Shown: piece by piece, positions 3,878-19,298 of the stretch
Numbering within the stretch: position 1 is the stretch's first letter
Layout: each line of letters opens with the position of its first letter
Assembly (NCBI GenBank): GCA_964543315.1
Contig: CAZIXY010000001.1
Location: 1 to 42,725 of the forward strand
Source of the DNA: an uncultured Desulfobacteraceae bacterium
GTDB lineage: Bacteria; Desulfobacterota; DSM-4660; Desulfatiglandales; Desulfatiglandaceae
Direction: 5' to 3'
DNA: 42,725 nt
Notes under the pieces: generated by a model
The model's input: only the letters and a program-made list of their open reading frames with translations
What the model was told of the DNA's origin: nothing
The model's database searches: none
Translations under genes and position numbers: made by a program

Positions 3878-5182
3878 TTAATGTGCCATATTTGGTATAA
3901 TCAATACTATTTGAGGAAAAATAATTAATAGTATAATACAGACAATACAGGCCGCCAGAAAAAAACTGACGCTCTTGAAAATTGTTCCGAGCTCCACTTC
4001 CGGCGCCAATGCCTTGACAACATAAATATTAACACCCACCGGTGGCGTAATGGCGCCCATTGTCGTCACCATTGTCAGGATTATGGAGTACCATATTGGG
4101 TCAAAACCAAGGGCCATTCCCAGTGGAAAAAAAATAGGAACCGTCAGAACCAGAAATCCCAACGAATCTACAAAACAGCCACCAATCAGGTAGATCACTA
4201 GCACAAACGCCAGAATGACATATGGAGATACCGGCAGGCCGGATGCAAATTCTGCAATCATAAAAGGGAGCCTGGTTACCGCCAAGAAACGGCCGAAAAT
4301 AATGGCACCCGTCACAAGGAAAAAGACCATCGCGGATATCTTCAGTGTTTCAATCACGGAATTGGCAAAGCCTTTCCATGTGATCCTGCGCTGTGCAACG
4401 GTCACAACAAGTGTAAAAAAAACACCTACCGCCCCGGCTTCCGTAGGGGTGAATATGCCTAAATACAGACCCCCGATAATCAGAATAAATATAATGACTG
4501 CTTCAACGACCCCTGTAAGTGATTTTATCTTATCCTTTAAATGTGACCTTGGGCCTTCCGGGCCATATTTCGGATTGATTCGACAGAGGACAAAGATGGT
4601 GAGCACAAAAAGACTCCCCAGGATAATAGCGGGCAGAATACCGCCGAGGAAGAGTTTGATAATGGATTGCTCTGTTTGCAGACCTATAACAATGAGGACC
4701 ACACTGGGAGGCATAACCGTCCCCAGGGTGCCTCCTGTGACGATGGTGCCGCTGCTCAACATGTCGTCATAATCATACTTTTGCATCTGTGGAAGAGCCA
4801 CTTTCCCCATGGTAGCAGCGGTGGCCGTATTGGAGCCGCAGATTGCAGCAAAAAGCTCATCAGCGCCTATTGTGGCTATAGCCAGCCCTCCGCGCCAATG
4901 ACCAAACCACTTATAGGCCGTATTATAAAGTCTGTCAGCGATACCCGAGTTGAATGCGAGATATCCCAGAAATATGAAAAGTGGTACAACCGTGAGGCCG
5001 TAACTGGAAAACGTGGACCAGATATCGTTTCCCACCATGTTAACAGCTGCCTGGAAAGAGACCACATACCAGAATCCGCAGAAACCCACAATGCCCATAG
5101 CAAAACCAACAGGCATGCCCAAAAAAAATAGAACCGCAAGGAGGATAATGATCCCGATAATGCCGGTCAGAGTTAAACTCAC
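3878..5182 (-). CDS. TRAP transporter large permease (DctM family)
   Basis: 434 aa, highly hydrophobic multi-span protein. It overlaps the upstream small-permease gene by 4 nt. Confidence 0.9.
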   Translation of the reverse strand: MSLTLTGIIGIIILLAVLFFLGMPVGFAMGIVGFCGFWYVVSFQAAVNMVGNDIWSTFSSYGLTVVPLFIFLGYLAFNSGIADRLYNTAYKWFGHWRGGLAIATIGADELFAAICGSNTATAATMGKVALPQMQKYDYDDMLSSGTIVTGGTLGTVMPPSVVLIVIGLQTEQSIIKLFLGGILPAIILGSLFVLTIFVLCRINPKYGPEGPRSHLKDKIKSLTGVVEAVIIFILIIGGLYLGIFTPTEAGAVGVFFTLVVTVAQRRITWKGFANSVIETLKISAMVFFLVTGAIIFGRFLAVTRLPFMIAEFASGLPVSPYVILAFVLVIYLIGGCFVDSLGFLVLTVPIFFPLGMALGFDPIWYSIILTMVTTMGAITPPVGVNIYVVKALAPEVELGTIFKSVSFFLAACIVCIILLIIFPQIVLIIPNMAH

Positions 5183-5670
5183 CTTTCCTCCTCCCCTGTT
5201 TTAAATATGGTCTCCAAAAATTGTGTTAAAAAAACCAGGGAGAGCGCAGCGCACCCCAAGGCGGCCCCGTAAGTAAAAGGGTAGTAAATGATTAGAAGGG
5301 TCTCGGTAACCTGTCCTGTCTCCCGAAGGATGTTTGCATATTTGGCTATTTGCACTGCCGCCACGCAGAAAAAGATCATACAGATTATGCTGTTTATACT
5401 ATGAAGAATCCTTTGGATTTTCTTTGAGAACCCCAGTACTAGAATATCAACAGAGATATGCCCCTTCCTGATTTGGGTGTACCCCAGAGCAAAAGCAGTT
5501 ACAATAGCTCCAAAGTAGCCCATCAGTTCATAAGTTCCTCTGATCGGTCCCCATATTAGTCGAAGAAAAATATTCGCGCACGTCAATACGATCATTGCCG
5601 ATAAAAAAACTCCGGCTATCCACATCAGAATCTGATTGACTACCCTGCAAAAATTTTCAAGGAACGCCAT
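5179..5670 (-). CDS. TRAP transporter small permease (DctQ family)
   Basis: 163 aa, four predicted TM helices. It sits between the DctP-like and DctM-like genes. Confidence 0.85.
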   Translation of the reverse strand: MAFLENFCRVVNQILMWIAGVFLSAMIVLTCANIFLRLIWGPIRGTYELMGYFGAIVTAFALGYTQIRKGHISVDILVLGFSKKIQRILHSINSIICMIFFCVAAVQIAKYANILRETGQVTETLLIIYYPFTYGAALGCAALSLVFLTQFLETIFKTGEEER

Positions 5671-5775
5671 CCCCTACTCCAATCCTTATCAAAACATAAA
5701 AGCTAGACCTGCATAACTCATGACCATTTTAATCCGTAATAAGCATCCGCTTATAAACCAGGGTTAAATATTTTT

Positions 5776-5821
5776 AGGTGGCTGCACAAAAAGGCGTATA
5801 ACCTCTTTAGTGCAACCACCT
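5776..5821 (-). other. Intercistronic stem-loop between the TRAP binding-protein and permease genes
   Basis: AGGTGGCTGCAC (5776-5787) pairs with GTGCAACCACCT (5810-5821), 11 of 12 positions. It lies immediately 3' of the dctP-like stop on the minus strand. It could be a partial terminator or an mRNA stabiliser that raises the binding protein to permease ratio. Confidence 0.4.
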
Positions 5822-5826
5822 TTTTT

Positions 5827-6852
5827 TTACTGACCGGAATACATTTTTGTAAATCCGACAATATCATCAACAATGGCTTTAGCCGGAAAGCCTTTGGCTT
5901 TAGCATCCGCAATCCACTTTCCCGTAATGGGCTTGAGCAAATTATCCCATTTATCTTTTTCCGTTTTTGAAAGTTGGATCACTTCAACGTTATGGGTTTT
6001 TTTCGACCACGCCATGGATTCATTTACATGATTATCCATATAGACACCCGTCCATGCCGACTGCTGGGGACCCAGCTCTTCCAATACCTTTTTGACATCC
6101 TGTGGCAGGCTGTTCCATTTTTTCATATTCATGACAACAGCAAAGGGGATAACACCAACGTTGATCATTGTCACATAACGGCATAACTCGGCAAATTTGA
6201 AATCCTTCATGACTTCCAAGGATGAGATCAGTCCTTTGACGGTTCCTTTTTGAAGTGCTTCCGGTGTTTGGGGCATCGGCATTCCTACAGGATTACCACC
6301 CAGGGTCTTGAGCACCACACCGGCACTTCCGGGAGCTCTAAGATCTAATCCTTTTAGGTCGGCAAGGTTCCTTACCGGAACTTTGCTCATAATATTAAAA
6401 GGTGCCGTGGTGAACATCGTAAGGACCTTTACTTTTTCAAACGCTTTCGGTTGGTACTTTTTATAAAGATCCCATAAGACAAGGCTTGAAACCGTTGCAC
6501 TTGGGGGATTAAGCGGCAGGGCAGTGGCGTTTGTCACAACAAACCTGCCCGGCTGGTATGCCATGCACAGGCAACCTATATCAGCGGTGCCTGCAATCAC
6601 TCCATCCATCATAGCCTTAGCCTTAAGCAGGGTCCCTCCCGGGAATGTCTTAATGGCGACCTTTCCATTGGTACGTTTTTCGACCTCCTTTTTCCACCTC
6701 TCCATCTGGACACATGGGAAAGTTGGAGCAGGTGGGAAGTTGGCATAATTCAGTTTGATCGGCGCCGCCGCGGCCGGCGCGGACATCCAGGTTATTGCAA
6801 AAACCATTGCTAAAAAAACTCCTGCCAGTATAAATCCTATTTTTCGTCTCAT
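5827..6852 (-). CDS. TRAP transporter periplasmic substrate-binding protein (DctP family)
   Basis: 341 aa. N-terminal signal peptide (ILAGVFLAMVFAITWMSAPAAAA). DctP-like sequence and operon context. Confidence 0.9.
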   Translation of the reverse strand: MRRKIGFILAGVFLAMVFAITWMSAPAAAAPIKLNYANFPPAPTFPCVQMERWKKEVEKRTNGKVAIKTFPGGTLLKAKAMMDGVIAGTADIGCLCMAYQPGRFVVTNATALPLNPPSATVSSLVLWDLYKKYQPKAFEKVKVLTMFTTAPFNIMSKVPVRNLADLKGLDLRAPGSAGVVLKTLGGNPVGMPMPQTPEALQKGTVKGLISSLEVMKDFKFAELCRYVTMINVGVIPFAVVMNMKKWNSLPQDVKKVLEELGPQQSAWTGVYMDNHVNESMAWSKKTHNVEVIQLSKTEKDKWDNLLKPITGKWIADAKAKGFPAKAIVDDIVGFTKMYSGQ

Positions 6853-9145: not shown

Positions 9146-9862
9146 CTATTTCATGTCTTGTATATCAAATTCCTTTAGGACAACCTCCTGCCCCCTCAGG
9201 ATATGCTCCTTGACCAGGCTTTCCACCCTGTCGGAGTCTCTTTTTCTGATGTACTTGAGCATCAGTCTGTGATCACGGTTACTCGTCCTGGCCATGCTCT
9301 CCACCTCCAGGATGACCTGCCTGAAACGATAGATCTGGTCTTTCAGGTCATTGATTATTTTAATCAACCTGGGACTCTGGCTCAGGGCATAGAGAAGATC
9401 GTGAAATTCCGTATTGACCCGCAACAGGGTTTTTTTATCCCCCCTATCGAGATATTTTTGGTATTCGGCGATCTTTTCATCTAAAGGTGCGAGATCTTCC
9501 TCCCGGTGCTTGATGGCCGCGAGTCTGGCCGCATAACTCTCCAAAACGCTGCGAATGCCGAAGGTTTCCTCGATGTCAGCCTTTGTTAACCCGGCCACGA
9601 AGAAACCTCCTGCAGGATTTTTGCGGAGCAGGCTTTCCCGCTCCAGCTTGTGAATCGCTTCCCTTACAGGGGTCCGGCTGATTCCCAAGGCATCTGCCAC
9701 ACGAATTTCCACCAAACGACTTTCAGGGGCAAGATCACCTCTGACAATAGCCCTCTTGAGGCTCTCATAGACATTCTGGCCAAGCGACCTTCTCTCGGGT
9801 AACGCCTTTAATGTCTTGAAATAGGAATTTTCTATTTGTTGATTTCCTCTCACTCCGGCCAT
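9146..9862 (-). CDS. GntR-family transcriptional regulator (FadR/FCD-type C-terminal domain)
   Basis: 238 aa. N-terminal winged helix (VYESLKRAIVRGDLAPESRLVEIRVADALGISRTPVREAIHKLE) followed by an all-helical C-terminal domain. Confidence 0.9.
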   Translation of the reverse strand: MAGVRGNQQIENSYFKTLKALPERRSLGQNVYESLKRAIVRGDLAPESRLVEIRVADALGISRTPVREAIHKLERESLLRKNPAGGFFVAGLTKADIEETFGIRSVLESYAARLAAIKHREEDLAPLDEKIAEYQKYLDRGDKKTLLRVNTEFHDLLYALSQSPRLIKIINDLKDQIYRFRQVILEVESMARTSNRDHRLMLKYIRKRDSDRVESLVKEHILRGQEVVLKEFDIQDMK

Positions 9863-10032: not shown

Positions 10033-11220
10033 CTATATGACCTTATTTTCCTTGAGACGAGCCAGGTCATCATCCGAGTACCCCAGTGCGCCGTAAATTT
10101 CCTTATTTTGTTCCCCGAAACGCGGCGGAAAAGAAAGCTTTCGGTCCAGTTGTTCCAGAAATGGGGTCATATTGGGCGGGGGTGGCAAGAGTATTTTTTT
10201 CCCGGTGACCGGATCCTGTGAAGACAACAGCCTTCTTTCGACCAAGGGATCGGCGATCACCTCCGGAATGGTCTTTATTTTGCTTATGGGAAGCGTAAGG
10301 GAGTTGAATAGGTCAATCAGCTCTTCGGACGTGTGGTTTTTGGTAATATCGCTTATCTCGCGGTTCAAATTCTGCACGTCCCCTATTCGGCCGGCGTTTT
10401 TGTCGTATTCCGGCTTGTCCAGATGCTTGAACATCTCCAGGGATACCATGGATTTCCACTGCCGGTCATTTCCCACGGCCATGTAGACAAATCCATTGCT
10501 CGTCTGATAGACGGAAACCGGACAGAAAAATTCGTGGGTGTTGCCCCTGCGAGTTATCGCCTTATTGAAAAGCGTGGATAGGGTTATGGGCACCGTCATC
10601 CATGATACGGAAGATTCAAACATGGACATGTTGATACAAGACCCCTCCCCTGTTGCCTCTCTCTTGAATAGGGCCTTCATCAGGAGTCCATAGGAATGTT
10701 CGCTTGTTCCCATATCCGGAAGTGGGATGCCGACCACCTGGGGGTCTCCGTCAGCCTCGCCGGTCAGATCCATCATGCCCGATCTCGCCTGAAGGATTGG
10801 ATCATATGCCGCCTCATTGCTGTCGGGACCGAAACCGGTAACGCCGAGCCATATGATATCCGGTTTCAAGGCCTTCATGGACTCGTAATCAACTCCCAGC
10901 TTTTTATAGTTCCTGGGAAGCTGGTTGGTCGCAAAGATATCCACATGGAGTTCTTCAATCAGAGAATGGAATATCTTCTGCCCTTCCTGGTCACCCAAAT
11001 TCAATGTGAGTGCCTCTTTGCCTGAATTTATGCACAGGTAATAGGCGTTCATCCTCTCCTCTCCAAGCACATTGTCACCTATTAGCCTGTTCGGATCCCC
11101 GTATACAGGATGTTCAAGTCGGATAACCCGCATGCCGTCTTGCGCCAGCCTGTAAGTCAAATAGGGCAGGACAGTCGCCTGTTCAAGAGATAATACGGTA
11201 ATGTTTTTGAAAAAATCCAT
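10033..11220 (-). CDS. Family III CoA-transferase (CaiB/BaiF/Frc family; BbsEF/IaaL-like)
   Basis: 395 aa. Typical N-terminus (ITVLSLEQATVLPYLTYRLAQDGMRVIRLEHP) and typical length. Confidence 0.9.
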   Translation of the reverse strand: MDFFKNITVLSLEQATVLPYLTYRLAQDGMRVIRLEHPVYGDPNRLIGDNVLGEERMNAYYLCINSGKEALTLNLGDQEGQKIFHSLIEELHVDIFATNQLPRNYKKLGVDYESMKALKPDIIWLGVTGFGPDSNEAAYDPILQARSGMMDLTGEADGDPQVVGIPLPDMGTSEHSYGLLMKALFKREATGEGSCINMSMFESSVSWMTVPITLSTLFNKAITRRGNTHEFFCPVSVYQTSNGFVYMAVGNDRQWKSMVSLEMFKHLDKPEYDKNAGRIGDVQNLNREISDITKNHTSEELIDLFNSLTLPISKIKTIPEVIADPLVERRLLSSQDPVTGKKILLPPPPNMTPFLEQLDRKLSFPPRFGEQNKEIYGALGYSDDDLARLKENKVI

Positions 11221-11337
11221 GATTTCCCCCTTTCGGGCCGGAGGCCAGGAATAATAATGGGTTGGTGTTTAATGAAGGGCAACTTCAAATAAGCTTTTCA
11301 AGCATTTGTGTACTGTATACAATATGCACTGTCAAGG
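11149..11337. repeat. Copy A of a duplicated segment: CoA-transferase 5' codons, 5'-UTR and promoter
   Basis: Aligns by eye with 18083-18269 in the same orientation, roughly 80% identity. The pair includes a perfectly identical 33-bp block (11305-11337 = 18237-18269). Confidence 0.85.
11307..11335 (-). promoter_or_regulatory. Putative sigma70 promoter of the catabolic operon with an embedded palindromic operator
   Basis: On the minus strand: perfect -35 TTGACA (11335-11330), a 17-nt spacer, and -10 TACACA (11312-11307). The 8-bp palindrome TGTATACA (11314-11321) lies in the spacer. The start codon is ~85 nt downstream. Confidence 0.5.
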
Positions 11338-11427
11338 AATTTTTCCCCGGAAAATTAACGGATGCCACCATTTTTGGATACAAAACAAGGTAGCTGGTCT
11401 TGGCTGGAAAAAACCGCCTTAATGCAG

Positions 11428-11841
11428 TCATTGACAGGGGCTTTGGTAGGGTCCTAATTTTTTAATCTCGCTGGTAAAGTCATTGATTACCCGGGCAAAT
11501 TTTAATCCTTCTGCCGCGGAGAGCCATTCAAGTCTTATCCTTCTGTTATCTATCCCCAACTGGGTGATCAAATTCTTTAAGAGCATTATCCTTCTTCGAG
11601 CCTTGTAATTACCAGCCTGGTAATGGCAGCTTCCCAAGTCTCAACCTCCAACAAAAACACCATCCGCCCCCAAATTAAATGCCTCAGTGATATGTAAGGG
11701 GTCAACGGCTCCCGAGCACATTACCCTGATTATCCTCAAGTTGGCAGGGTATCGGATGCGGCTTGTTCCCGCCAGATCTGCCGCCCTATAGACACACCAA
11801 TTGCAACAAAAACCCACAATTTTCGGTTCAAATGTATTCAC
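11428..11841 (-). CDS. mvhD: MvhD-type hydrogenase/heterodisulfide-reductase-associated [2Fe-2S] subunit, selenocysteine-containing (in-frame TGA at 11643-11641)
   Basis: ORFs 11641-11919 and 11428-11637 are in the same frame, separated only by TGA. The joined sequence reads ...[45 protein letters not shown]...[27 protein letters not shown]. This matches the MvhD consensus ...VGGCHxGDCHY with the first Cys replaced by TGA. The likely start is GTG 11841 (GAAGG RBS 7 nt upstream), giving [16 protein letters not shown] 11877 and the track's upstream start at 11919 (apparently non-ATG by my reading) are alternatives. Confidence 0.8.
11608..11624 (-). promoter_or_regulatory. Candidate bacterial SECIS hairpin for the mvhD UGA
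   Basis: The mRNA reads UGA-GACUUGGGAAGCUGCC-AUUACC-AGGCU-GGUAAU. This is a 6-bp stem (extendable by GCC/GGC) with a G-rich 5-nt loop. The stem starts 16 nt (17th base) after the UGA. Confidence 0.5.
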
Positions 11842-12090
11842 GGTTTTACCTTCTTTATATCTTGCACAAATTTGCATATTAGGGTAAGGGCAGGTGTGTG
11901 TCAATCTCAAATCTATCAATACGTTTCCAGGAAAAAGCTCTGTTCAGTTAGCTCTATCATTCCTGTGTTTGATGTGATAGCAAAAAAATCGTATCAGTTC
12001 ATAGGTTCAGAGTACTGATTTCACCGAAAGCCCGCATATTCTTCTGCGCGCAGGTCTGAACCTGGGAATACCTAAGACAAGGAGATGGAA

Positions 12091-13071
12091 ATGGCTAAGC
12101 CAAAGATCGCCTTTTATTCATGTGCTTCATGTGGAGGGTGTGAGGAAGCAGTCATTAACCTTGATGAAGATATACTGAACGTGGCGGATGCTGTGGATAT
12201 CATACAATGGCCTACGATCCTGGATTTTAAGAGGAAGGATCTTGAAGCCTTGGGAGATGGTGAGATAGTGGTGAGCTTCATAAATGGAGCAGTAAGGCTC
12301 GGTGAACAGGAGGAAATGGTAAATCTCTTAAGGCAAAAGTCTCAGCTCATAGTCGCCTTTGGTTCTTGTGCTCATTTGGGAGGGATACCGGGTCTGGGTA
12401 ACCTCTACACGAGGGATGCGATTTTACAAAGGATTTATAAGGAAGTCCCGACTGTTGAAAATCCAGAGGGAATTATTCCACAGGAGAGGACAACCATTGA
12501 TACTGGCGAGCTCACTCTGCCGGAGTTTTATGATACGGTAAAGACCTTGGGTCAGGTCATCCCGGTGGATTACTACCTTCCCGGGTGTCCACCGCCTTCT
12601 CACTTGATAATGAGTGCGTTAAGTGCATTTCTTAAGGGTGAATTACCGGAAAAGGGGGCAGTGCTTGCTCCTGGTAAACCTTTATGTGATACCTGCCCCA
12701 GGGCGGAGGAAAGACGGGGGGGAGTATCAATACAGGAAATAAAAAGACCACACGAAATTAAACTCAGCCCCTGGAAGTGTTTTCTTGAGCAGGGGATAAT
12801 CTGCCTTGGTTCGGTTACCCGCTCAGGGTGCGGAGAAAGGTGCATTAAAGCTAATATGCCGTGCAGGGGGTGTATGGGTCCTGCCGAAGGGACTGTAGAT
12901 CAAGGGATAAAAGCCCTTTCAGTTATTGCATCCATATTGGGACTTGAAGGAGAAGAAGGGATGACAGAGGAAGAGGTTAAAAAATTACTCGATGGCATTG
13001 AAGACCCGGCAGGGACATTTTACAGATTCAGCATGCCCACTTCTCTCCTTATAAGAAGGAAAATGAAATAG
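12091..13071 (+). CDS. mvhG: [NiFe] hydrogenase small subunit, Mvh/group-3c type (MvhG-like)
   Basis: The ORF starts at 12085, but ATG 12091 has better spacing to AAGGAG. The N-terminus KIAFYSCASCGGCEE, plus GSCAHLGG and LPGCPPP, provide the proximal-cluster cysteines. CDTCP, the CFLEQGIIC segment and CGERCIKANMPCRGC supply further Fe-S ligands. Confidence 0.88.
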   Translation: MAKPKIAFYSCASCGGCEEAVINLDEDILNVADAVDIIQWPTILDFKRKDLEALGDGEIVVSFINGAVRLGEQEEMVNLLRQKSQLIVAFGSCAHLGGIPGLGNLYTRDAILQRIYKEVPTVENPEGIIPQERTTIDTGELTLPEFYDTVKTLGQVIPVDYYLPGCPPPSHLIMSALSAFLKGELPEKGAVLAPGKPLCDTCPRAEERRGGVSIQEIKRPHEIKLSPWKCFLEQGIICLGSVTRSGCGERCIKANMPCRGCMGPAEGTVDQGIKALSVIASILGLEGEEGMTEEEVKKLLDGIEDPAGTFYRFSMPTSLLIRRKMK

Positions 13072-13080
13072 GAGGACAGA

Positions 13081-14454
13081 GTGAGAAAGATAACCATAGA
13101 CCCGGTAACAAGAATTGAAGGGCATGGGAAGATAGAGATATTACTTGATAAGGAAGGGGAGGTTGAAAGAGCCTATTTTCAAACCCCGGGGCTTCGCGGG
13201 TTCGAGAAATTTTGTGAGGGAAGACCGGCCGAAGAGATGCCTAGAATAACGCAAAGGATCTGTGGCGGAAGTTCAACAGCTCACCACATGGCGTCGACCA
13301 AGGCCCTTGATGACCTTTTCAAGGTTGAGCCGACCCCGGTGGCAAAGAATATACGAGAATTGATGTACAATGCCTTCATTGCAGAACACCATATTTTGCA
13401 TTTCTTTTTCCTTGGTGGACCCGACTTTTTTGTCGGTCCGCGAGAAACCGCCAAAGAAAGGAATATCATGGGGGTTATTGCCAAGGCCGGGATGGAAGTG
13501 AGAGATAAAATCATAGAGGCAAGGAAAAGGCTGAGAGGAGTTATGGAAGCAATAGGGGGGAAGGTGATTCACCCTGTTTGCGGGCTGCCCGGAGGAATAT
13601 CAAAACCTGTAACCGAGGAGGAAAGAAAAGACTTTATAAGGGCGGCTGAATACTTAGTAGAATTTTCCGTATTTGTCGCGTTTGACATTTGGGACAATAT
13701 GGTGCTTAAAAAAAAGGACTATCTCGATTTTATCACAGGAGATGTTTATAAGCAAAGGACCTACTACATGGGTCTGGTGGATGAGAATAATAAGGTAAAT
13801 TATTACGATGGTCTCATAAGGGTGGTTGACCCAAATGGTAAAGAATTTGCCAGATTTGAGGCTCAGGAATACCCTGATCATATCAGGGAACATGTTGAGC
13901 CGTGGACCTATGAGAAATTTTCCTACCTCAAGAACGTAGGCTGGAAGGGATTTGTTAGCGGTGAAGAGAGCGGCGTTTTCAAAGTAGGACCACTGGCCCG
14001 GCTGAATGCAGCCGACGGAATGGCGACTCCACTGGCTCAAGAATACTATGAAAAAATGTATGCAGCATTGGGTGAGAAACCGGCACACAATACCCTTGCT
14101 TTCCACTGGGCCAGGCTCATTGAGCTGGTTTACACCTCTGAGAGGATGCTGGACCTTGTCGGCGACCCGGATCTTACTTCCCCTGATGTGATAAATATAC
14201 CGGCCGAAATTCCAACACAAGGGGTGGGAGTGGTAGAAGCACCGGAAGGGACCCTTTTCCATCAATACGAAACTGATGAAAGGGGGATTGTCACAGGGGC
14301 CAATTTGATTGAACCCGTGCAAAACAATTCAGCTTCTATTTGTATGTCTATCGAGAAGGCGGCTAAATCGCTTATACATAAAGGCAAGGTCACGGATAGT
14401 ATTCTCAATATGATTGAGATGGCAATCAGGGCCTATGATCCCTGTAATGCCTGA
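13081..14454 (+). CDS. mvhA: [NiFe] hydrogenase large-subunit homologue, Mvh/group-3c type, with atypical active-site motifs
   Basis: GTG start 5 nt after GGAGGA. The TRIEGHGKIE (L0) motif and overall MvhA-like sequence are present. However, RICGGSSTAHH replaces RxCGxCxxxH, EAPEGTLFH replaces EAPRGxLxH, and the ORF ends DPCNA-TGA where DPCxxCxxH is expected. Confidence 0.85.
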   Translation: MRKITIDPVTRIEGHGKIEILLDKEGEVERAYFQTPGLRGFEKFCEGRPAEEMPRITQRICGGSSTAHHMASTKALDDLFKVEPTPVAKNIRELMYNAFIAEHHILHFFFLGGPDFFVGPRETAKERNIMGVIAKAGMEVRDKIIEARKRLRGVMEAIGGKVIHPVCGLPGGISKPVTEEERKDFIRAAEYLVEFSVFVAFDIWDNMVLKKKDYLDFITGDVYKQRTYYMGLVDENNKVNYYDGLIRVVDPNGKEFARFEAQEYPDHIREHVEPWTYEKFSYLKNVGWKGFVSGEESGVFKVGPLARLNAADGMATPLAQEYYEKMYAALGEKPAHNTLAFHWARLIELVYTSERMLDLVGDPDLTSPDVINIPAEIPTQGVGVVEAPEGTLFHQYETDERGIVTGANLIEPVQNNSASICMSIEKAAKSLIHKGKVTDSILNMIEMAIRAYDPCNA

Positions 14455-14488
14455 GCTACCCCCTCACCTCCAGGAAAAATATCAGACT

Positions 14489-15493
14489 CTACCCTCCAAG
14501 TAATGCCTTACACTCCTCGATTAATGGGGGCAAAACCTTTCGATAATCTGCGATTACTCCAAGATCAGAGACCTTAAACATACCTGCATCAGAATCCTTA
14601 TTTATTGCCACTATAAGCTTTGACTCCGAGCAGCCGGCAATATGCTGCGATGCGCCACGTATCCCGACTGCAATATAAAGGTCAGGCTTTACAGTCTTGC
14701 CTGAATCTCCAATTACCATACTTGTTGTGGGCACCCAGCCTTCATCATAAGGCACCGTCGTTGTACCTACAGCACCCCCTAATATCTTGGCAAAATCTTG
14801 AAGAAGCTGAAAGCCCTCAGCATCGCCAATTCCTCCTCCGCCGGCAATTATTACCTTAGCGTCCTCGATCTTTATTCCTTCCACCTCTTCTTTTGTTGTG
14901 CTCACCAATTTGGTTCTTATTACTGAATCATCTATTGTCACCTTGATATTTTCGACTTCGCCCTTTCTTGAGCTATCGGGTTCAAGTGGTGTCATGGCCC
15001 TTGGTTTTATAGTTGCCAACTGCGGCCGGGAATCTTTGGAAACCATCTCTGCAATAGCATTCCCGCCGTAAACCGACCGGGTCTGAACCAAAGTTTTGCT
15101 ATCCGGATCCATATCAACATTAATGCAGTTCATGAAAGGGAAGCACCCTAATCTAAAAGCTACCCTGCCAGCTACATCGCGTCCCATAGTTGTGTGCCCT
15201 AATAAAACAACAGACGGCCCTATTTGCTGACAAGCCTGGGTAATTGCAGCGGTATAGCTATCGGGGTTGTACTCGGACAGCAAGGGGTCATCTGCCAGAT
15301 AGACATTATCCGCCCCATAGAGGATAGCTTCCTCACCGCTTTCCCGAATATCGCTTCCTATGATGAGTGCGCTTAAGTTTCCGTCAAGTCCTTCGGCCAG
15401 CATTTTCCCGACACCCAGCAATTCCTTAGTAATTGCTGTAATCTTCCCCTCTTCCTGTTCTCCGCAGATCAGCACTGCACTATTTTGAGCCAT
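14489..15493 (-). CDS. etfA: Electron transfer flavoprotein alpha subunit
   Basis: 334 aa. C-terminal FAD-binding signature PDLYIAVGIRGASQHIAG. It sits immediately downstream of etfB. Confidence 0.93.
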   Translation of the reverse strand: MAQNSAVLICGEQEEGKITAITKELLGVGKMLAEGLDGNLSALIIGSDIRESGEEAILYGADNVYLADDPLLSEYNPDSYTAAITQACQQIGPSVVLLGHTTMGRDVAGRVAFRLGCFPFMNCINVDMDPDSKTLVQTRSVYGGNAIAEMVSKDSRPQLATIKPRAMTPLEPDSSRKGEVENIKVTIDDSVIRTKLVSTTKEEVEGIKIEDAKVIIAGGGGIGDAEGFQLLQDFAKILGGAVGTTTVPYDEGWVPTTSMVIGDSGKTVKPDLYIAVGIRGASQHIAGCSESKLIVAINKDSDAGMFKVSDLGVIADYRKVLPPLIEECKALLGG

Positions 15494-15508
15494 TCGATTC
15501 CTCCTTTT

Positions 15509-16306
15509 TTATATCACTCCGGCCGCTCTCAGCTTCGCTGCCAGATTTCCAGCGACCTCCTCCGGAGCTTCGCCACCGATGATTTCACATTTTCTTCCTC
15601 GCTCAGGGATAGAGAGTTTCAGCAGGTTAGATCCTTCGGCACTTGCTCCGATGAGGGAGACATCAGCATTAATATCCTGATTTGACCAAACCGGAATTTC
15701 CTTACGCACTGCACTTACGATACCCATTCCAGTGGGTAGGCGAGGCAAGCCAATCTCATTGCTCACAGTCAGTACTGCCGGCAGGGAGACCTCAAATACC
15801 TGATGGCCGTCTGGAATTGTTCTTTCAACCTTTAAAAGATTATCATCTAATAGTTCAATATCTTTGGCTAAGCTAATGTGAGGCAGATTTAGTCTCTCGG
15901 CTAAGACGGCGCCGACTGTGCCCATACTCCAATCAGCTGCTTCCCTCCCGCACAAGACCAGGTCAAAGGCATCAATTTTCTGTATTGCCTGGGCCAGGAT
16001 ATAAGCTGTAGCAAGGCTGTCCGAACCCGCAAACGCATCATCATACAGGACAATTCCCTCATCAGCCCCCATGGCCAAAGCACGCCTGACCACCTCTTTA
16101 GACTCATCAGTTCCTACGGTTATTGCTGTTATCTTGCCTCCATGTTTTTCCTTGACTCGCAGCGCAGCCTCTACTGCTTGAGCGTCATAAGGATTCATCA
16201 CTAATGGTATTCCCTCAGGTGGAATCACCTGGTTATCCTTAAGCCTAAATTTTTCCGTCGGCATCTCGGGGTCCAGGACTTGCTTAACGCATACCACAAT
16301 ATTCAT
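15509..16306 (-). CDS. etfB: Electron transfer flavoprotein beta subunit
   Basis: 265 aa. It has the N-terminus MNIVVCVKQVLDP characteristic of EtfB/FixA. Confidence 0.93.
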   Translation of the reverse strand: MNIVVCVKQVLDPEMPTEKFRLKDNQVIPPEGIPLVMNPYDAQAVEAALRVKEKHGGKITAITVGTDESKEVVRRALAMGADEGIVLYDDAFAGSDSLATAYILAQAIQKIDAFDLVLCGREAADWSMGTVGAVLAERLNLPHISLAKDIELLDDNLLKVERTIPDGHQVFEVSLPAVLTVSNEIGLPRLPTGMGIVSAVRKEIPVWSNQDINADVSLIGASAEGSNLLKLSIPERGRKCEIIGGEAPEEVAGNLAAKLRAAGVI

Positions 16307-16347
16307 TTCTCTTTCCTCCTTACCATTTTCCGGTATTCCAATATTCT

Positions 16348-16366
16348 CCCCGCTGCTTCAGCGGGG
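16348..16366 (-). other. Intercistronic hairpin between the acyl-CoA dehydrogenase gene and etfB
   Basis: CCCCGCTG-CTT-CAGCGGGG forms a perfect 8-bp GC-rich stem. It lies within the 136-nt gap between 16443 and 16306. Confidence 0.4.
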
Positions 16367-16442
16367 ATGAGCAAAGCGAACTATCTTGCTTCAGACCTCT
16401 ATGTGGTTGAGAAGTTGATTGGTTAATTTGACGATCTCTGTA

Positions 16443-17597
16443 CTAAGAGAAAGCAGGTATCCCCAAAAGCTGCTGCCCAATAGTCAACTGGTGTATTTGT
16501 GCTGACCCGCCCAGTATCGTAGCTACTATAGCATCTTGATAGTGGTGCCCCACGGGATAGTCATCAACAGTGCCAAAGGCACCATGAATCTTAATTGCCT
16601 GAGATGATACCCAGAGCGCCGTCTCTGTACTAAAATACTTGGAGCAGGACATCTCTTTGATATGCCTGATCCCCCGGGTCTTCATATCCGCTACACGATA
16701 GGCAAGCCATCTGGCTGCCTCAATCTTCATTGCCATATCAGCGATGACCCCCTGTACCAACTGATGGCCACCTATGGGCTTTCCAAACTGGACTCGCTCC
16801 TTGGCATACTTTACACACGAGTCAAGACAACTCTGGGCTACACCAACACAACCGGCGGCCAAGAAAAGACGGGCAGTATCAATACCTCGCAGGGCATCCC
16901 TCAAAGCTCGCCCGGTCTCCCCAACCTTGTTCTCCAGGGGTACCTTTACATCGCTGAATCTTAAGTTGCCCTCACTACCACCTCGCCAGCCTAACTTACC
17001 TTTTAGAGGCACGCTTGAGAAACCCGGCATACCCCTCTCAATTATAAATGTGGCAAGCCCTTTAAGACCTTTGGCTTTATCTGTCTGGCAAATGACCAAA
17101 AGGACGTCACCTATTTCGCCATTAGTAATAAAGATCTTATTACCATTGATGAGCCAGTGGTCGCCTTCTAATACGGCAGTGGTCTCAATCCTGGACGAAT
17201 CACTACCGGCATTAGGTTCAACTACAGCACCGACCAGAATCGAATCACCACGACACACCGAGGGCAGGTATTTCTGCTTCTGCTCCTCACTACCCGCATC
17301 CAAAAGATTAGTTCCCGGTTGGATGCAGCCGCTTGTCGCCGCCTGGGTTATAGCGAGGCTGGCCCAGCAAAGCTGCTCCCAAATAATAGCCGAGGTAAGA
17401 TAATCAAGCCCCAATCCTCCGTATTCCTGGGGCAAATGTGGAGCTAAGAGTCCCTGTGATGCCAGCTTTTTTATAATCCCAGGGTCAAATTTGTCCTCAC
17501 GGATATTCTCCTTGAGCGTTGGCAAAATCTCCCGTTCGGCAAACTTCCGTGCCATATCCTGAAACATCTTCTGCTCTTCATTTAGCTGAAAATCCAT
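16443..17597 (-). CDS. Acyl-CoA dehydrogenase
   Basis: 384 aa. ACAD architecture and typical N-terminus (MDFQLNEEQKMFQDMARKFAEREI), with a C-terminal helical domain. Confidence 0.92.
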   Translation of the reverse strand: MDFQLNEEQKMFQDMARKFAEREILPTLKENIREDKFDPGIIKKLASQGLLAPHLPQEYGGLGLDYLTSAIIWEQLCWASLAITQAATSGCIQPGTNLLDAGSEEQKQKYLPSVCRGDSILVGAVVEPNAGSDSSRIETTAVLEGDHWLINGNKIFITNGEIGDVLLVICQTDKAKGLKGLATFIIERGMPGFSSVPLKGKLGWRGGSEGNLRFSDVKVPLENKVGETGRALRDALRGIDTARLFLAAGCVGVAQSCLDSCVKYAKERVQFGKPIGGHQLVQGVIADMAMKIEAARWLAYRVADMKTRGIRHIKEMSCSKYFSTETALWVSSQAIKIHGAFGTVDDYPVGHHYQDAIVATILGGSAQIHQLTIGQQLLGIPAFS

Positions 17598-17617
17598 TCT
17601 TTATGCCTCCAAGTATT

Positions 17618-18013
17618 TTAGTCCTTCTGGACAAGCTCAACAAGGATGCCATGAGTCCCCTTGGGGTGAAGAAAGGCGCTTAATCCCTCGGCACCGGGCA
17701 TCGGCTTTCCCAGGGCATCAATCCCTTTATCCTTAAGCGAACCAATTTCCGCGTTGATATCATCCACCTCATAGCAGACATGTTGTATACCCTCACCGCG
17801 CTTTTCCAGGAATCTGGATATCGGTCCATCTTTGCCAACAGGCTCTAAGAGCTCAACAGTAGCATTCTCTAACTCCACCATGCTTACCCTAACCGTTCCT
17901 CCTCCTCCAATTATTGGTTCAGACGATTCAAGCCCAAAGACCGAACGATAAAACTCCCTGGCTTCCTCAAGGTCTTTTACTGCCATACCCAGATGACTAA
18001 TCGCTTTTAGCAT
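17618..18013 (-). CDS. Methylmalonyl-CoA epimerase-like VOC (glyoxalase-fold) protein
   Basis: 131 aa. Sequence features HLGMAV...ELLEP...FLEKRGEGIQHVCYEV...ILVELVQ are typical of methylmalonyl-CoA epimerases. Confidence 0.85.
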   Translation of the reverse strand: MLKAISHLGMAVKDLEEAREFYRSVFGLESSEPIIGGGGTVRVSMVELENATVELLEPVGKDGPISRFLEKRGEGIQHVCYEVDDINAEIGSLKDKGIDALGKPMPGAEGLSAFLHPKGTHGILVELVQKD

Positions 18014-18037
18014 TTATCGCCTCCTAATGATAAGATT

Positions 18038-18151
18038 TCAATTATGCGGAGAATATATATGAAAATAAGGTTTTTGTGTCAATCCGTAAGCCAAGTATGG
18101 TAACAAAGTTGCCTGCTCAAGAGACAATACGGTGATTTTTTTGGGATCCAT
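18038..18151 (-). pseudogene. Relic 5' fragment of a family III CoA-transferase gene (first ~26 codons, then unrelated tail and stop)
   Basis: From ATG 18151 the sequence reads MDPKKITVLSLEQATLLPYLAYGLTQ. Compare MDFFKNITVLSLEQATVLPYLTYRLAQ of the full gene at 11220. Homology ends after ~26 codons and the frame stops at 18038. Confidence 0.8.
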
Positions 18152-18269
18152 GATTTTCCCCCTTTCAGGCCCGGGGCCATGAATGATAGTGGGTTGGTGT
18201 TGGATGAATGGCAACTTCAAATGAGCAGTTCAAGTCTTTGTGTACTGTATACAATATGCACTGTCAAGG
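18083..18269. repeat. Copy B of the duplicated CoA-transferase 5' codons, 5'-UTR and promoter segment
   Basis: See copy A (11149-11337). Same orientation. It overlaps the last codons of mltG. Confidence 0.85.
18239..18267 (-). promoter_or_regulatory. Putative sigma70 promoter (duplicate) driving the epimerase-ACAD-etfBA operon, with the same palindromic operator
   Basis: On the minus strand: -35 TTGACA (18267-18262), a 17-nt spacer, and -10 TACACA (18244-18239). TGTATACA lies at 18246-18253. The sequence is identical to 11307-11335. Confidence 0.5.
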
Positions 18270-19298
18270 GTTTTTTCGGCGGGTTCCGCGCCTTTTTTTC
18301 TGATAGATTTCTACCGCCTTGTTGTGTTCGGAAAGGGTCTCTGAAAAATAATGACTGCCGTCATTTTTTGAAACAAAATACAGGTATTTACTGTCCGCCG
18401 GATAAAGAATCGCCTTGATTGCTTCCTTGCCGGGATTTGATATCGGCCCGGGCGGCAGCCCTCGAATGATATATGTATTGTAGGGAGTGCTTTGATTGAG
18501 ATGCTCTCGTGTAAGATCTCCGTCAAATTTCTTCAGACCGTATATCACCGTGGGATCACTTTCGAGGCGCATGTTTTTTTCCAGTCGATTTAAGAAAACA
18601 CTCGCAATAAGCGGCCTTTCTTTTGCACGGCCGGTCTCTTTTTCCACGATAGAGGCAAGGATAACCACTTCCTGCATCGTCATGTCCAATTCCTCGGCCC
18701 TTTTCCGGAATGGAGCAGTGACCTGCCGGAATCGATTGACCATCGTATCAATTACTGAAATGGCGGGCAATCCTCGGCCGAAATGATAGGTGTCGGGGTA
18801 CAGGTAGCCTTCCAGCCCTGTTCCGGACACGCCATATCGCTTTGAAATTTCAGGATTTTCTGTAAGTGATAGAAACTCCTTCTTTTTTATAAGACCCCTT
18901 TTTTCCAACAATTCTCCTATCTGCATCCTGGTAAATCCTTCGGGGATGGTTACCGGATGCAGTAAGACAGCACCCTTGCTTAAGACATTGAGGATCTTGA
19001 GTGGCGGCATACCGGAATTCAGCACATATTCCCCGGCTTTGATGTTTGTGCTGTGACCCATGAGCCTGGCCCAAAAAAGGAAAAGGCCTTTGTTCGTGAT
19101 AATTTCCCTTCTGTTGAGTTCGCCGGCCACCTCCTTAAGAGTTGCGCCGTCCCGGACGATGAATAACTGATCGTCTCCACCTCCTTTGGCAGGGCTCATG
19201 AGATAATACCCGTATGCGAAAAGCACAAAGACAACCATTAGAAAACAAAAAGCGATTGCAAAAAGTATGGATCTCCTGTGAGACAACGGATGCTGCAT
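18264..19298 (-). CDS. mltG: Endolytic murein transglycosylase MltG (YceG-like)
   Basis: 344 aa. N-terminal TM anchor and YceG-family sequence (FTIPEG-type block TIPEGFTRMQIGELL, ASIVEKET, LESDPTVIYG). Confidence 0.88.
   Translation of the reverse strand: MQHPLSHRRSILFAIAFCFLMVVFVLFAYGYYLMSPAKGGGDDQLFIVRDGATLKEVAGELNRREIITNKGLFLFWARLMGHSTNIKAGEYVLNSGMPPLKILNVLSKGAVLLHPVTIPEGFTRMQIGELLEKRGLIKKKEFLSLTENPEISKRYGVSGTGLEGYLYPDTYHFGRGLPAISVIDTMVNRFRQVTAPFRKRAEELDMTMQEVVILASIVEKETGRAKERPLIASVFLNRLEKNMRLESDPTVIYGLKKFDGDLTREHLNQSTPYNTYIIRGLPPGPISNPGKEAIKAILYPADSKYLYFVSKNDGSHYFSETLSEHNKAVEIYQKKRRGTRRKNP

Follow-up and report, generated by a model that had tools for sequence, protein, structure and literature searches.

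In a 42,725-nucleotide (nt) stretch of DNA from an uncultured Desulfobacteraceae bacterium (GenBank assembly GCA_964543315.1, contig CAZIXY010000001.1), the control region of a coenzyme A (CoA)-transferase operon is present twice in direct orientation, with a 6.66-kb gene module between the two copies. We refer to the whole 42,725-nt stretch as "the window", to the copy on the CoA-transferase side as copy A, and to the copy on the side of mltG and the epimerase gene as copy B. The overall change at this locus is a swap of modules that encode an electron-transfer flavoprotein (ETF) and an acyl-CoA dehydrogenase (ACAD). Our preferred reading, which we consider likely, is that one rearrangement inserted a foreign module and duplicated the promoter/operator, that the displaced genes were lost later, and that copy B is functional, such that both transcription units are under the same control region. 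Each step left a scar: a relic of the CoA-transferase gene, a relic of mltG, and a relic of etfB', the ETF gene that was displaced. The locus would thereby represent a natural case of a regulon gaining a member without evolving a new binding site. This is well-documented operon remodelling of a known kind, and no new kind of mechanism is involved.

The duplicated control region

A repeat search of the window identified a direct repeat at 11223-11350 and 18155-18282 (86% identity without gaps, spacing 6932 bp), and BLASTN of one region against the other aligned 11152-11345 with 18086-18277 (161 of 195 positions identical, i.e., 83%; E = 6e-54). A first-pass annotation of the window had described, by eye, a direct repeat of ~190 bp with ~80% identity, consisting of the CoA-transferase control region, leader and 5' end of the gene. 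The alignment supports this description at essentially the same coordinates. It also bears out the 33-bp promoter block that was said to be identical in both copies: the 33-nt run CCTTGACAGTGCATATTGTATACAGTACACAAA is unchanged between them (minus strand; the two promoter/operator blocks in Table 1). When up to three mismatches were allowed, the 31-nt core of this block matched only two sites in the window, copies A and B, with zero expected in shuffled sequences. A window search found no other copy of the operator.

While the core of the repeat was drawn correctly, its extent was underestimated. A second aligned part lies further upstream (11350-11392 against 18343-18386; 77% identity, E = 4e-5 by BLASTN), and 18343-18386 is inside the real mltG 3' coding sequence. 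The segment 11350-11424 matches the mltG 3' ends of two related loci, L010 and L027. Copy A is without 65 nt that are present in copy B (18278-18342), and another locus, L059, has a fuller mltG relic at the equivalent place upstream of its CoA-transferase gene. The duplicated unit is ~330 bp long and comprises ~140 nt of the mltG 3' end, the promoter/operator, a leader of ~85 nt, and codons 1 to 22–26 of the CoA-transferase gene. L010 and L011 each have the repeat sequence only once.

The window is a metagenome-assembled contig, and short repeats can mis-join contigs, meaning that a chimera of assembly or binning has to be considered. However, the context of copy A is reproduced by the independent metagenome assemblies L001 and L002, and that of copy B by L004–L007 and L090, in each case with 99–100% identity. 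Because independent assemblies from several samples give both contexts, an assembly artefact is excluded: at least six such assemblies, from different samples, have identical junctions on both sides, and copies at 83% identity would not collapse. Nor does convergence of two independent operator sites account for a similarity that spans the leader, 22–26 codons and the mltG relic, well beyond the operator. The probability that we attach to a chimera or to convergence is vanishingly small.

The leaders of copies A and B are identical at 70 of 85 positions, and conservation of the leader sequence ends at the genus level. No significant fold was predicted for copy A, copy B, or three orthologous leaders (z-scores from +0.6 to −1.9), and the leader had zero Rfam matches at gathering thresholds. 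The near-zero z-scores and the Rfam result rule out a riboswitch, an attenuator, or another structured leader.

The 5' end of the CoA-transferase gene in copy B is part of a 37-codon open reading frame (ORF; Table 1). The first-pass annotation had read it as the first ~26 codons of the CoA-transferase gene followed by unrelated residues. The relic stands, with CoA-transferase homology extending to codons ~22–26, but the remainder is not unrelated sequence: it is the conserved native leader/promoter region of the epimerase operon. A longer relic, which MAFFT aligned past codon 26 to ~18040, was rejected as spurious, since this stretch is homologous to the native epimerase leader elsewhere. A role as leader peptide was also ruled out, given that the start codon is lost in the orthologous relic of locus L176 (see below).

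The ancestral operon and the swap of modules

Synteny was determined by tblastn of the window proteins onto 58 orthologous loci; CoA-transferase homologues with 83–94% identity all come from uncultured Desulfobacteraceae or Desulfobacterales. The common gene order is mltG, CoA-transferase, etfB', etfA', ACAD', GntR, mutS, mutL, DctPQM, ligase, and FAD subunit, where the primed genes are only 30–40% identical to etfBA and ACAD of the window. Ancestrally, then, mltG was followed by the promoter/operator, the CoA-transferase gene, etfB'-etfA'-ACAD', and the genes for a GntR/FCD regulator, a B12-dependent acyl-CoA mutase, a tripartite ATP-independent periplasmic (TRAP) transporter and a PaaK-like ligase. 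These genes make up a catabolic operon conserved in the Desulfobacterales, and the repeated segment is its regulatory head. In the closest relatives, L010 and L011 (CoA-transferase 93–94% identical), mltG adjoins the CoA-transferase gene and there is no mvh/epimerase block; the module is likewise absent from this position in about 20 further loci. The first-pass annotation had suggested that its 6.7-kb mvh/etf/acd block was inserted or rearranged, and had proposed looking for mltG next to the CoA-transferase operon in relatives; the comparison is positive and supports insertion. Among the 58 loci, the order etfA, mvhA and mvhG (both reversed), mvhD, CoA-transferase, GntR occurs only in L001, L059 and the window, and L059 is a distinct relative. 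The junction of copy B with mltG has its orthologous counterpart at the mltG-proximal promoter in L010 and L011, and copy B is therefore the ancestral promoter in situ.

The same set of genes exists elsewhere as a unit. In L091 and L092, epimerase, ACAD, etfB and etfA are followed by reversed mvhA and mvhG and by mvhD at another site, with most proteins 73–88% identical to those of the window (mvhD, 54%). This unit is divergent from an operon with fadB-like, GntR, mutase, TRAP and ligase genes, and the same operator lies natively upstream of it. As for base composition, which the first-pass annotation had proposed to scan, GC content at third codon positions (GC3) is lower in the module (0.445–0.509) than elsewhere in the window (median ~0.57; Mann-Whitney p = 5e-5). 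The low GC3 is compatible with a different origin of the module, although it is no proof of one.

A companion deletion, beyond what the first-pass annotation had described, removed the original etfB'-etfA'-ACAD' set. Directly after the CoA-transferase stop codon there is an etfB' relic (..TKQVPGTTDGNLNPKTGN.., compared with MDIIVLIKQVPDTTEVKLDPRTGN in L010), beyond which the sequence resumes shortly before the GntR gene. The 3' junction of the deletion is common to the window and L059. From the scar and the common junction it follows that the lineage first had the ancestral operon and later lost the ETF/ACAD genes within it. Separately, the CoA-transferase frame of L059 is split into two parts (5330-5677 and 5604-6464), either by a frameshift or by a sequencing error.

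Junctions and the mode of rearrangement

At the left joint, the CoA-transferase sequence ..CTTACAG passes into module sequence, ATTGACAC.., with CoA-transferase homology ending at 18086 (..CTTAC) and module homology starting at ~18082 (TTGACAC..), placing the junction at ~18083-18086. Microhomology amounts to a few bases at most, and for this reason we regard the joint as illegitimate and not the product of a homologous crossover; the recombination with a homologous locus invoked in the first-pass annotation is not upheld. Annotation of the window proteins with Pfam and NCBIfam revealed no transposase or integrase domains, in line with the earlier statement that no such gene is present. The ends of the module have no terminal inverted repeats and no short (2–15 bp) target duplication, the duplication being ~330 bp. 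Insertion of a transposon, insertion sequence or integrative element is ruled out on these grounds.

The duplication with its extent, the ancestral synteny, the junctions, the deletion scar and the family-wide conservation of the operator are observed in the sequences; we infer the mechanism of insertion and its source, and likewise promoter activity, start sites, co-regulation, and the identity of the repressor and its effector. In the ancestor of the window lineage, the 6.66-kb module would have been joined on its left to codon ~22–26 of the CoA-transferase gene and on its right, at the mvhD end, to a point ~140 nt inside the mltG 3' end. Such illegitimate, unequal joining would amount to a tandem duplication of ~330 bp whose novel joint contains the module, and would leave the CoA-transferase gene intact with its own control region. 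The new module would acquire a GntR-controlled promoter in front of P2, its own promoter, and the old operon would have the second copy. Subsequent deletion of etfB'-etfA'-ACAD' from the operon would complete the net swap. The features of a segmental duplication are present: two similar copies of a segment that relatives have only once, an insert that is absent from this site and found as a unit elsewhere, and a left joint without extended homology.

The topology also resembles that of an insertion-duplication, with direct repeats, a truncated copy upstream of the insert and a complete copy downstream. A Campbell-type single crossover, which is what the recombination proposed in the first-pass annotation amounts to, could produce it, if a circle carried the module and a homologous fragment with mltG, the promoter and the 5' end of the CoA-transferase gene. 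However, the donor circle would already have to contain the illegitimate joint between CoA-transferase codon 26 and P2, which moves the problem back by one step. No donor arrangement was found among 169 related loci, and there is no integrase or plasmid gene. Moreover, the difference between the relic and the functional gene is about what would be expected for decay in situ since the split from L010. We consider a Campbell-type event improbable.

A conserved operator and its candidate repressor

In about 45 loci, the region ahead of the CoA-transferase gene contains TTGACA and, 6–10 nt further on, TGTATACNGTAYACA, with one occurrence in each. Across these loci, the spacer is variable, and the hexamer and the palindrome are constant. 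The palindrome consists of two GTATAC boxes (TGTATAC-N-GTAYACA), and reads TGTATACAGTACACA in the window and TGTATACNGTATACA in relatives. Operators of FadR-subfamily GntR regulators have the consensus NyGTM-N0-1-KACNy, with the core GTM-N0-1-KAC (PMC4494728); the operators of the window and its relatives match this core. With a 17-nt spacer, the operator of each copy covers the −10 position (TACACA). Thus, the block that is identical in copies A and B, which the first-pass annotation had described simply as a promoter, is a candidate regulatory site composed of a −35 box and a GntR/FadR-type operator conserved across the family. At the level of sequence, the two operons indeed carry the same promoter/operator, as had been proposed.

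A candidate repressor for both copies is encoded within the CoA-transferase operon itself (Table 1). Among loci with enough sequence, the operator is present in 37 of the 38 that have the GntR gene, and both of the loci shown without this gene (L013 and L047) are without the operator. In L013 and L062, a homologous promoter has a decayed operator, TTGACAGTCCAAATTAATTCCAGTAAAAAAA. The sequence features of a FadR-type repressor/operator pair are found, i.e., GntR and FCD domains, an operator that fits the consensus, and placement on a promoter together with co-inheritance of operator and regulator; the GntR/FCD protein is likely the repressor. Repression is predicted to occur by occlusion, with the repressor, bound to the operator over the −10 position, excluding RNA polymerase until an effector relieves it. 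The effector that releases the protein might be an acid or an acyl-CoA. The two units are probably co-regulated, to judge from their shared block. More broadly, the conserved operator TGTATACNGTAYACA is now defined for a widespread, uncharacterised operon of the Desulfobacterales, and provides a handle for predicting the regulon and finding the substrate.

L013 and L062 represent a third arrangement, in which mvhD is followed by the promoter with the decayed operator, the CoA-transferase gene, genes of the xanthine dehydrogenase family (292, 170 and 770 amino acids) and a mutase gene, with no GntR gene; regulator loss and operator decay go together in these loci. In the window, a third, weaker 7-nt unit is found directly upstream of the two GTATAC boxes (11314-11328 and 18246-18260; TGCATAT, then TGTATAC, then AGTACAC). 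It is specific to the window, L176 and, in part, L010 and L011, since other genomes have the variable spacer in its place. The −35 hexamer (TTGACA) of the downstream operon contains the mltG stop codon, TGA (18266-18264), as it does in L010 and L011. A GC-rich hairpin, GGCGCGGAACCCGCC, lies within the last mltG codons, an arrangement that is kept in the closest relatives.

Is copy B functional?

The epimerase operon has a promoter-like element of its own, P2. The motif TTGACA-17/18-TATATT is found immediately 5' of the epimerase gene in L091, L092, L170–L172, L175, L176 and L179, i.e., in all module versions. This conserved element rules out promoter capture in the strict sense. The first-pass annotation, which had the second operon "captured" by copy B, overstated the case: the operon keeps P2, so the upstream copy would add control and not take the place of P2.

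A second instance of copy B was found in L176, a short contig from another sample whose epimerase is 92% identical to that of the window. It contains the mltG 3' end, the promoter/operator, the leader, the relic, the same junction (CTTACAGATTGACACAAAAACC), P2 and the epimerase gene. The relic of copy B in the window is identical to the L176 relic at 57 of 66 positions, compared with 46–52 of 69 for functional genes, and the two relics have derived changes in common. This pattern points to a single old event behind the copy B relics. The L176 relic is without its ATG and has a broken frame. The L176 contig also has, at ~236-363, a 128-nt GC-rich insertion in the copy B leader just after the operator, with hairpin-like segments, which is absent from the window, L010 and L011.

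The leader of L176 is only 65% identical to the copy B leader of the window, yet the 31-nt promoter/operator is identical at 31 of 31 positions. Outside the block, the two copies in the window differ at ~21% of repeat positions; we calculate P ~4e-4 for 33 unchanged nt at a pre-specified site. Because the block is intact amid decay in L176, and because the 33-nt identity in the window has so low a probability, the promoter/operator of copy B appears to be under purifying selection, which argues for it being functional.

The same observations bear on the alternative that the insertion left copy B behind as a dead by-product, with epimerase-ACAD-etfBA driven by P2 alone and the 33-nt identity due to gene conversion from a functional copy A or to the short time elapsed. 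This explanation has several points in its favor: P2 is kept in every version of the module, even where no operator is nearby (L175 and L179); the CoA-transferase relic is decaying; and the leaders of A and B in the window resemble each other more than orthologous B leaders do, meaning that exchange between copies happens. It does not readily explain why the block in L176 escaped change when its flanks diverged and took up the 128-nt insertion, nor the improbability of 33 unchanged positions at ~21% divergence. In addition, the module of L091 and L092 is natively under the same operator, which suggests that GntR control of this module has been selected elsewhere. On balance, a dead copy B seems unlikely, although it is the most serious of the competing explanations.

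Several observations nevertheless weigh against the preferred reading of an insertion, duplication and swap with a functional copy B. First, the −10 element is weak (TACACA; TATACA in relatives), and a consensus promoter scan reported neither copy A, copy B nor P2. The scanner was silent because the −10 hexamers end in A, and so the promoter assignment rests on conservation, not on the scanner. Second, since the epimerase operon has P2, copy B could be dispensable. Third, the similarities among leaders are discordant with the tree of the relics: copies A and B of the window share 70 of 85 positions, copy B of the window and that of L176 share 55 of 85, and copy B of L176 and the leader of L010 share 67 of 84. 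Gene conversion or inter-strain recombination appears to have acted on the region, and could contribute to the identity of the block. Fourth, copy B has been seen in two lineages only (the window and L176), and copies A and B have been seen together only in the window genome. In looking for copy B in the L059 lineage, we examined epimerase homologues with 85–92% identity (P0123, P0127, P0128, P0130, P0131, P0132 and P0133), and only P0133, which belongs to L176, has the copy B structure; the remaining homologues are in other contexts, behind genes for enoyl-CoA hydratase, mutase, or HdrA-like proteins. Fifth, the right-hand joint underwent different later changes in the window and in L059, such that the original event cannot be reconstructed exactly. 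In the window, there is the 65-nt deletion and an altered mvhD C-terminus; in L059, an extra 230-amino-acid ORF (4405-5097), absent from the window, lies between mvhD and the mltG relic.

Relation to known systems

Repressors of the FadR subfamily of GntR regulators (FCD type) act at GT-N-AC palindromic operators in the promoters of their own catabolic operons, e.g., FadR, LldR, PdhR and GlcC (surveyed in PMC4494728). The system described here resembles them in that the predicted regulator combines a GntR winged helix-turn-helix with an FCD domain and is encoded inside the operon, and in that its GTATAC boxes fit GTM-N0-1-KAC, lie over the −10 position, and are conserved with the regulator gene across ~40 genomes. 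It differs from the characterised FadR systems in that this orthologous group, its motif of two adjacent boxes (TGTATAC-N-GTAYACA) and its effector are uncharacterised. Here, the second operator arose by segmental duplication and not by independent evolution of a site.

In the Lenski experiment, a duplication of rnk-citT gave rise to Cit+ Escherichia coli, a case of promoter capture by tandem duplication (PMC5918244). As with rnk-citT, the rearrangement reported here created a new juxtaposition of promoter and gene by duplication, and a working copy stays with the original gene; illegitimate joints and the absence of a mobile element are further points in common. Unlike rnk-citT, the duplicated piece is only ~330 bp, with a 6.66-kb module at the joint, and the "captured" operon brings its own promoter. 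The event here is also old and has become fixed in natural lineages, and it goes together with loss of the replaced genes.

In-situ gene displacement in mosaic operons is said to have been described by Omelchenko et al. in 2003. The term is used in PMC4481853 and PMC1779527. Here, too, the ETF and acyl-CoA dehydrogenase of a conserved neighborhood were replaced by distant homologues (30–40% identity) of different origin. By contrast with in-situ displacement, the replacement does not occupy the old slot: together with hydrogenase genes, it forms a transcription unit of its own further upstream, and duplication of the control region kept the regulation intact. The likeness to Campbell integration is limited to direct repeats that flank an insert, with a truncated copy upstream and an intact copy downstream; unlike in Campbell integration, no recombinase, circular donor or homologous junction was found, and the left junction is illegitimate.

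Genes of the window and the inserted module

Of the genes concerned, mvhG and mvhA are encoded on the plus strand and all others on the minus strand. In the minus-strand direction, the locus consists of mltG, copy B, the relic ORF, epimerase, ACAD, etfB and etfA, toward which mvhA and mvhG converge from the plus strand, followed by mvhD, copy A, and the genes for the CoA-transferase, the GntR/FCD regulator, a B12-binding subunit and mutase, TRAP DctPQM, the PaaK-like ligase and an XdhB-like FAD subunit. Coordinates are given in Table 1.

Table 1. Coordinates of the duplicated control region, the scars, the inserted module and the neighboring genes in the window
Feature	Position	Strand	Remarks
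GntR/FCD (FadR-subfamily) regulator	9146..9862	-	PF00392 (7.9e-16) and PF07729 (3.2e-27); candidate repressor for both operator copies
etfB' scar, first ~24 codons	9933..10005	-	..KQVPGTTDGNLNPKTGN..; aligns to L010 etfB' MDIIVLIKQVPDTTEVKLDPRTGN
Intact family III CoA-transferase	10033..11220	-	PF02515; codons 1 to ~23 (11152-11220) in repeat
Copy A leader (putative 5' untranslated region)	11221..11304	-	
Copy A promoter/operator block	11305..11337	-	−35 at 11335-11330; operator at 11321-11307
mltG 3'-end relic upstream of copy A	11350..11424	-	Part of duplicated unit; 65 nt deleted relative to copy B
Inserted 6.66-kb module	11428..18082	mixed	P2 and seven genes; Pfam/NCBIfam annotation
mvhD	11428-11919	-	
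mvhG	12085-13071	+	
mvhA	13081-14454	+	
etfA	14489-15493	-	
etfB	15509-16306	-	
ACAD	16443-17597	-	
Epimerase (methylmalonyl-CoA-epimerase-like)	17618-18013	-	
Relic ORF, 37 codons	18038..18151	-	MDPKKITVLSLEQATLLPYLAYGLTQKPYFHIYSPHN, then stop; ATG at 18151, stop codon 18040-18038
P2, sigma-70-like promoter element of module	18054..18082	-	TTGACA 18082-18077, 17 nt, TATATA 18059-18054
Copy B leader (putative 5' untranslated region)	18152..18236	-	GGCC-NNN-GGCC hairpin; ribosome-binding site GGGGGA
Copy B promoter/operator block	18237..18269	-	−35 TTGACA 18267-18262; operator TGTATACAGTACACA 18253-18239; putative −10 TACACA 18244-18239 overlapped
mltG (YceG family)	18264..19298	-	Ancestral upstream neighbor of CoA-transferase operon; 3' end in duplicated target

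The ETF and acyl-CoA dehydrogenase genes that were replaced in the operon are a conventional set, and their replacement travels with an Mvh-type hydrogenase and a putative selenocysteine-containing MvhD. We tentatively raise the possibility, which we consider doubtful, that the swap was not neutral: the module would encode an electron-confurcating acyl-CoA dehydrogenase system, coupled to a hydrogenase or to Hdr, through which the pathway gained a different electron sink, and the ~330-bp duplication would then have been selected for GntR control. The advantage of duplicating the control region would be that the GntR sensor of the pathway itself came to govern the new redox module.

The epimerase-ACAD-etfBA set is repeatedly linked to electron-transfer proteins of the Mvh/Hdr type. 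In L170 (3432-9662) and L171 (3-3801), it is preceded by genes for ferredoxin-like, HdrA-like and FlpD(MvhD)-fusion iron-sulfur flavoproteins, with no mvhGA or mvhD after it.

Two of the module's hydrogenase genes have unusual TGA codons. In mvhD, an in-frame TGA (11641-11643, minus strand) is located at the first cysteine of the MvhD motif, where the window has VGG-TGA-DLGSCHY and L091 has VGGCHPGECHY. The codon is conserved in L001, L013 and L059, and probably encodes selenocysteine; the 60 nt from the TGA onward are predicted to form a hairpin of −12.5 kcal/mol. The mvhA gene ends ..DPCNA-TGA (14452-14454, plus strand), with the stop at the second cysteine of the C-terminal DPCxxCxxH nickel-binding motif. 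In L059, mvhA likewise ends DPCND-stop. Beyond the stop, conservation is lost and there is no histidine. The mvhA stop would represent either selenocysteine at an unusual ligand position or a truncated NiFe large subunit.

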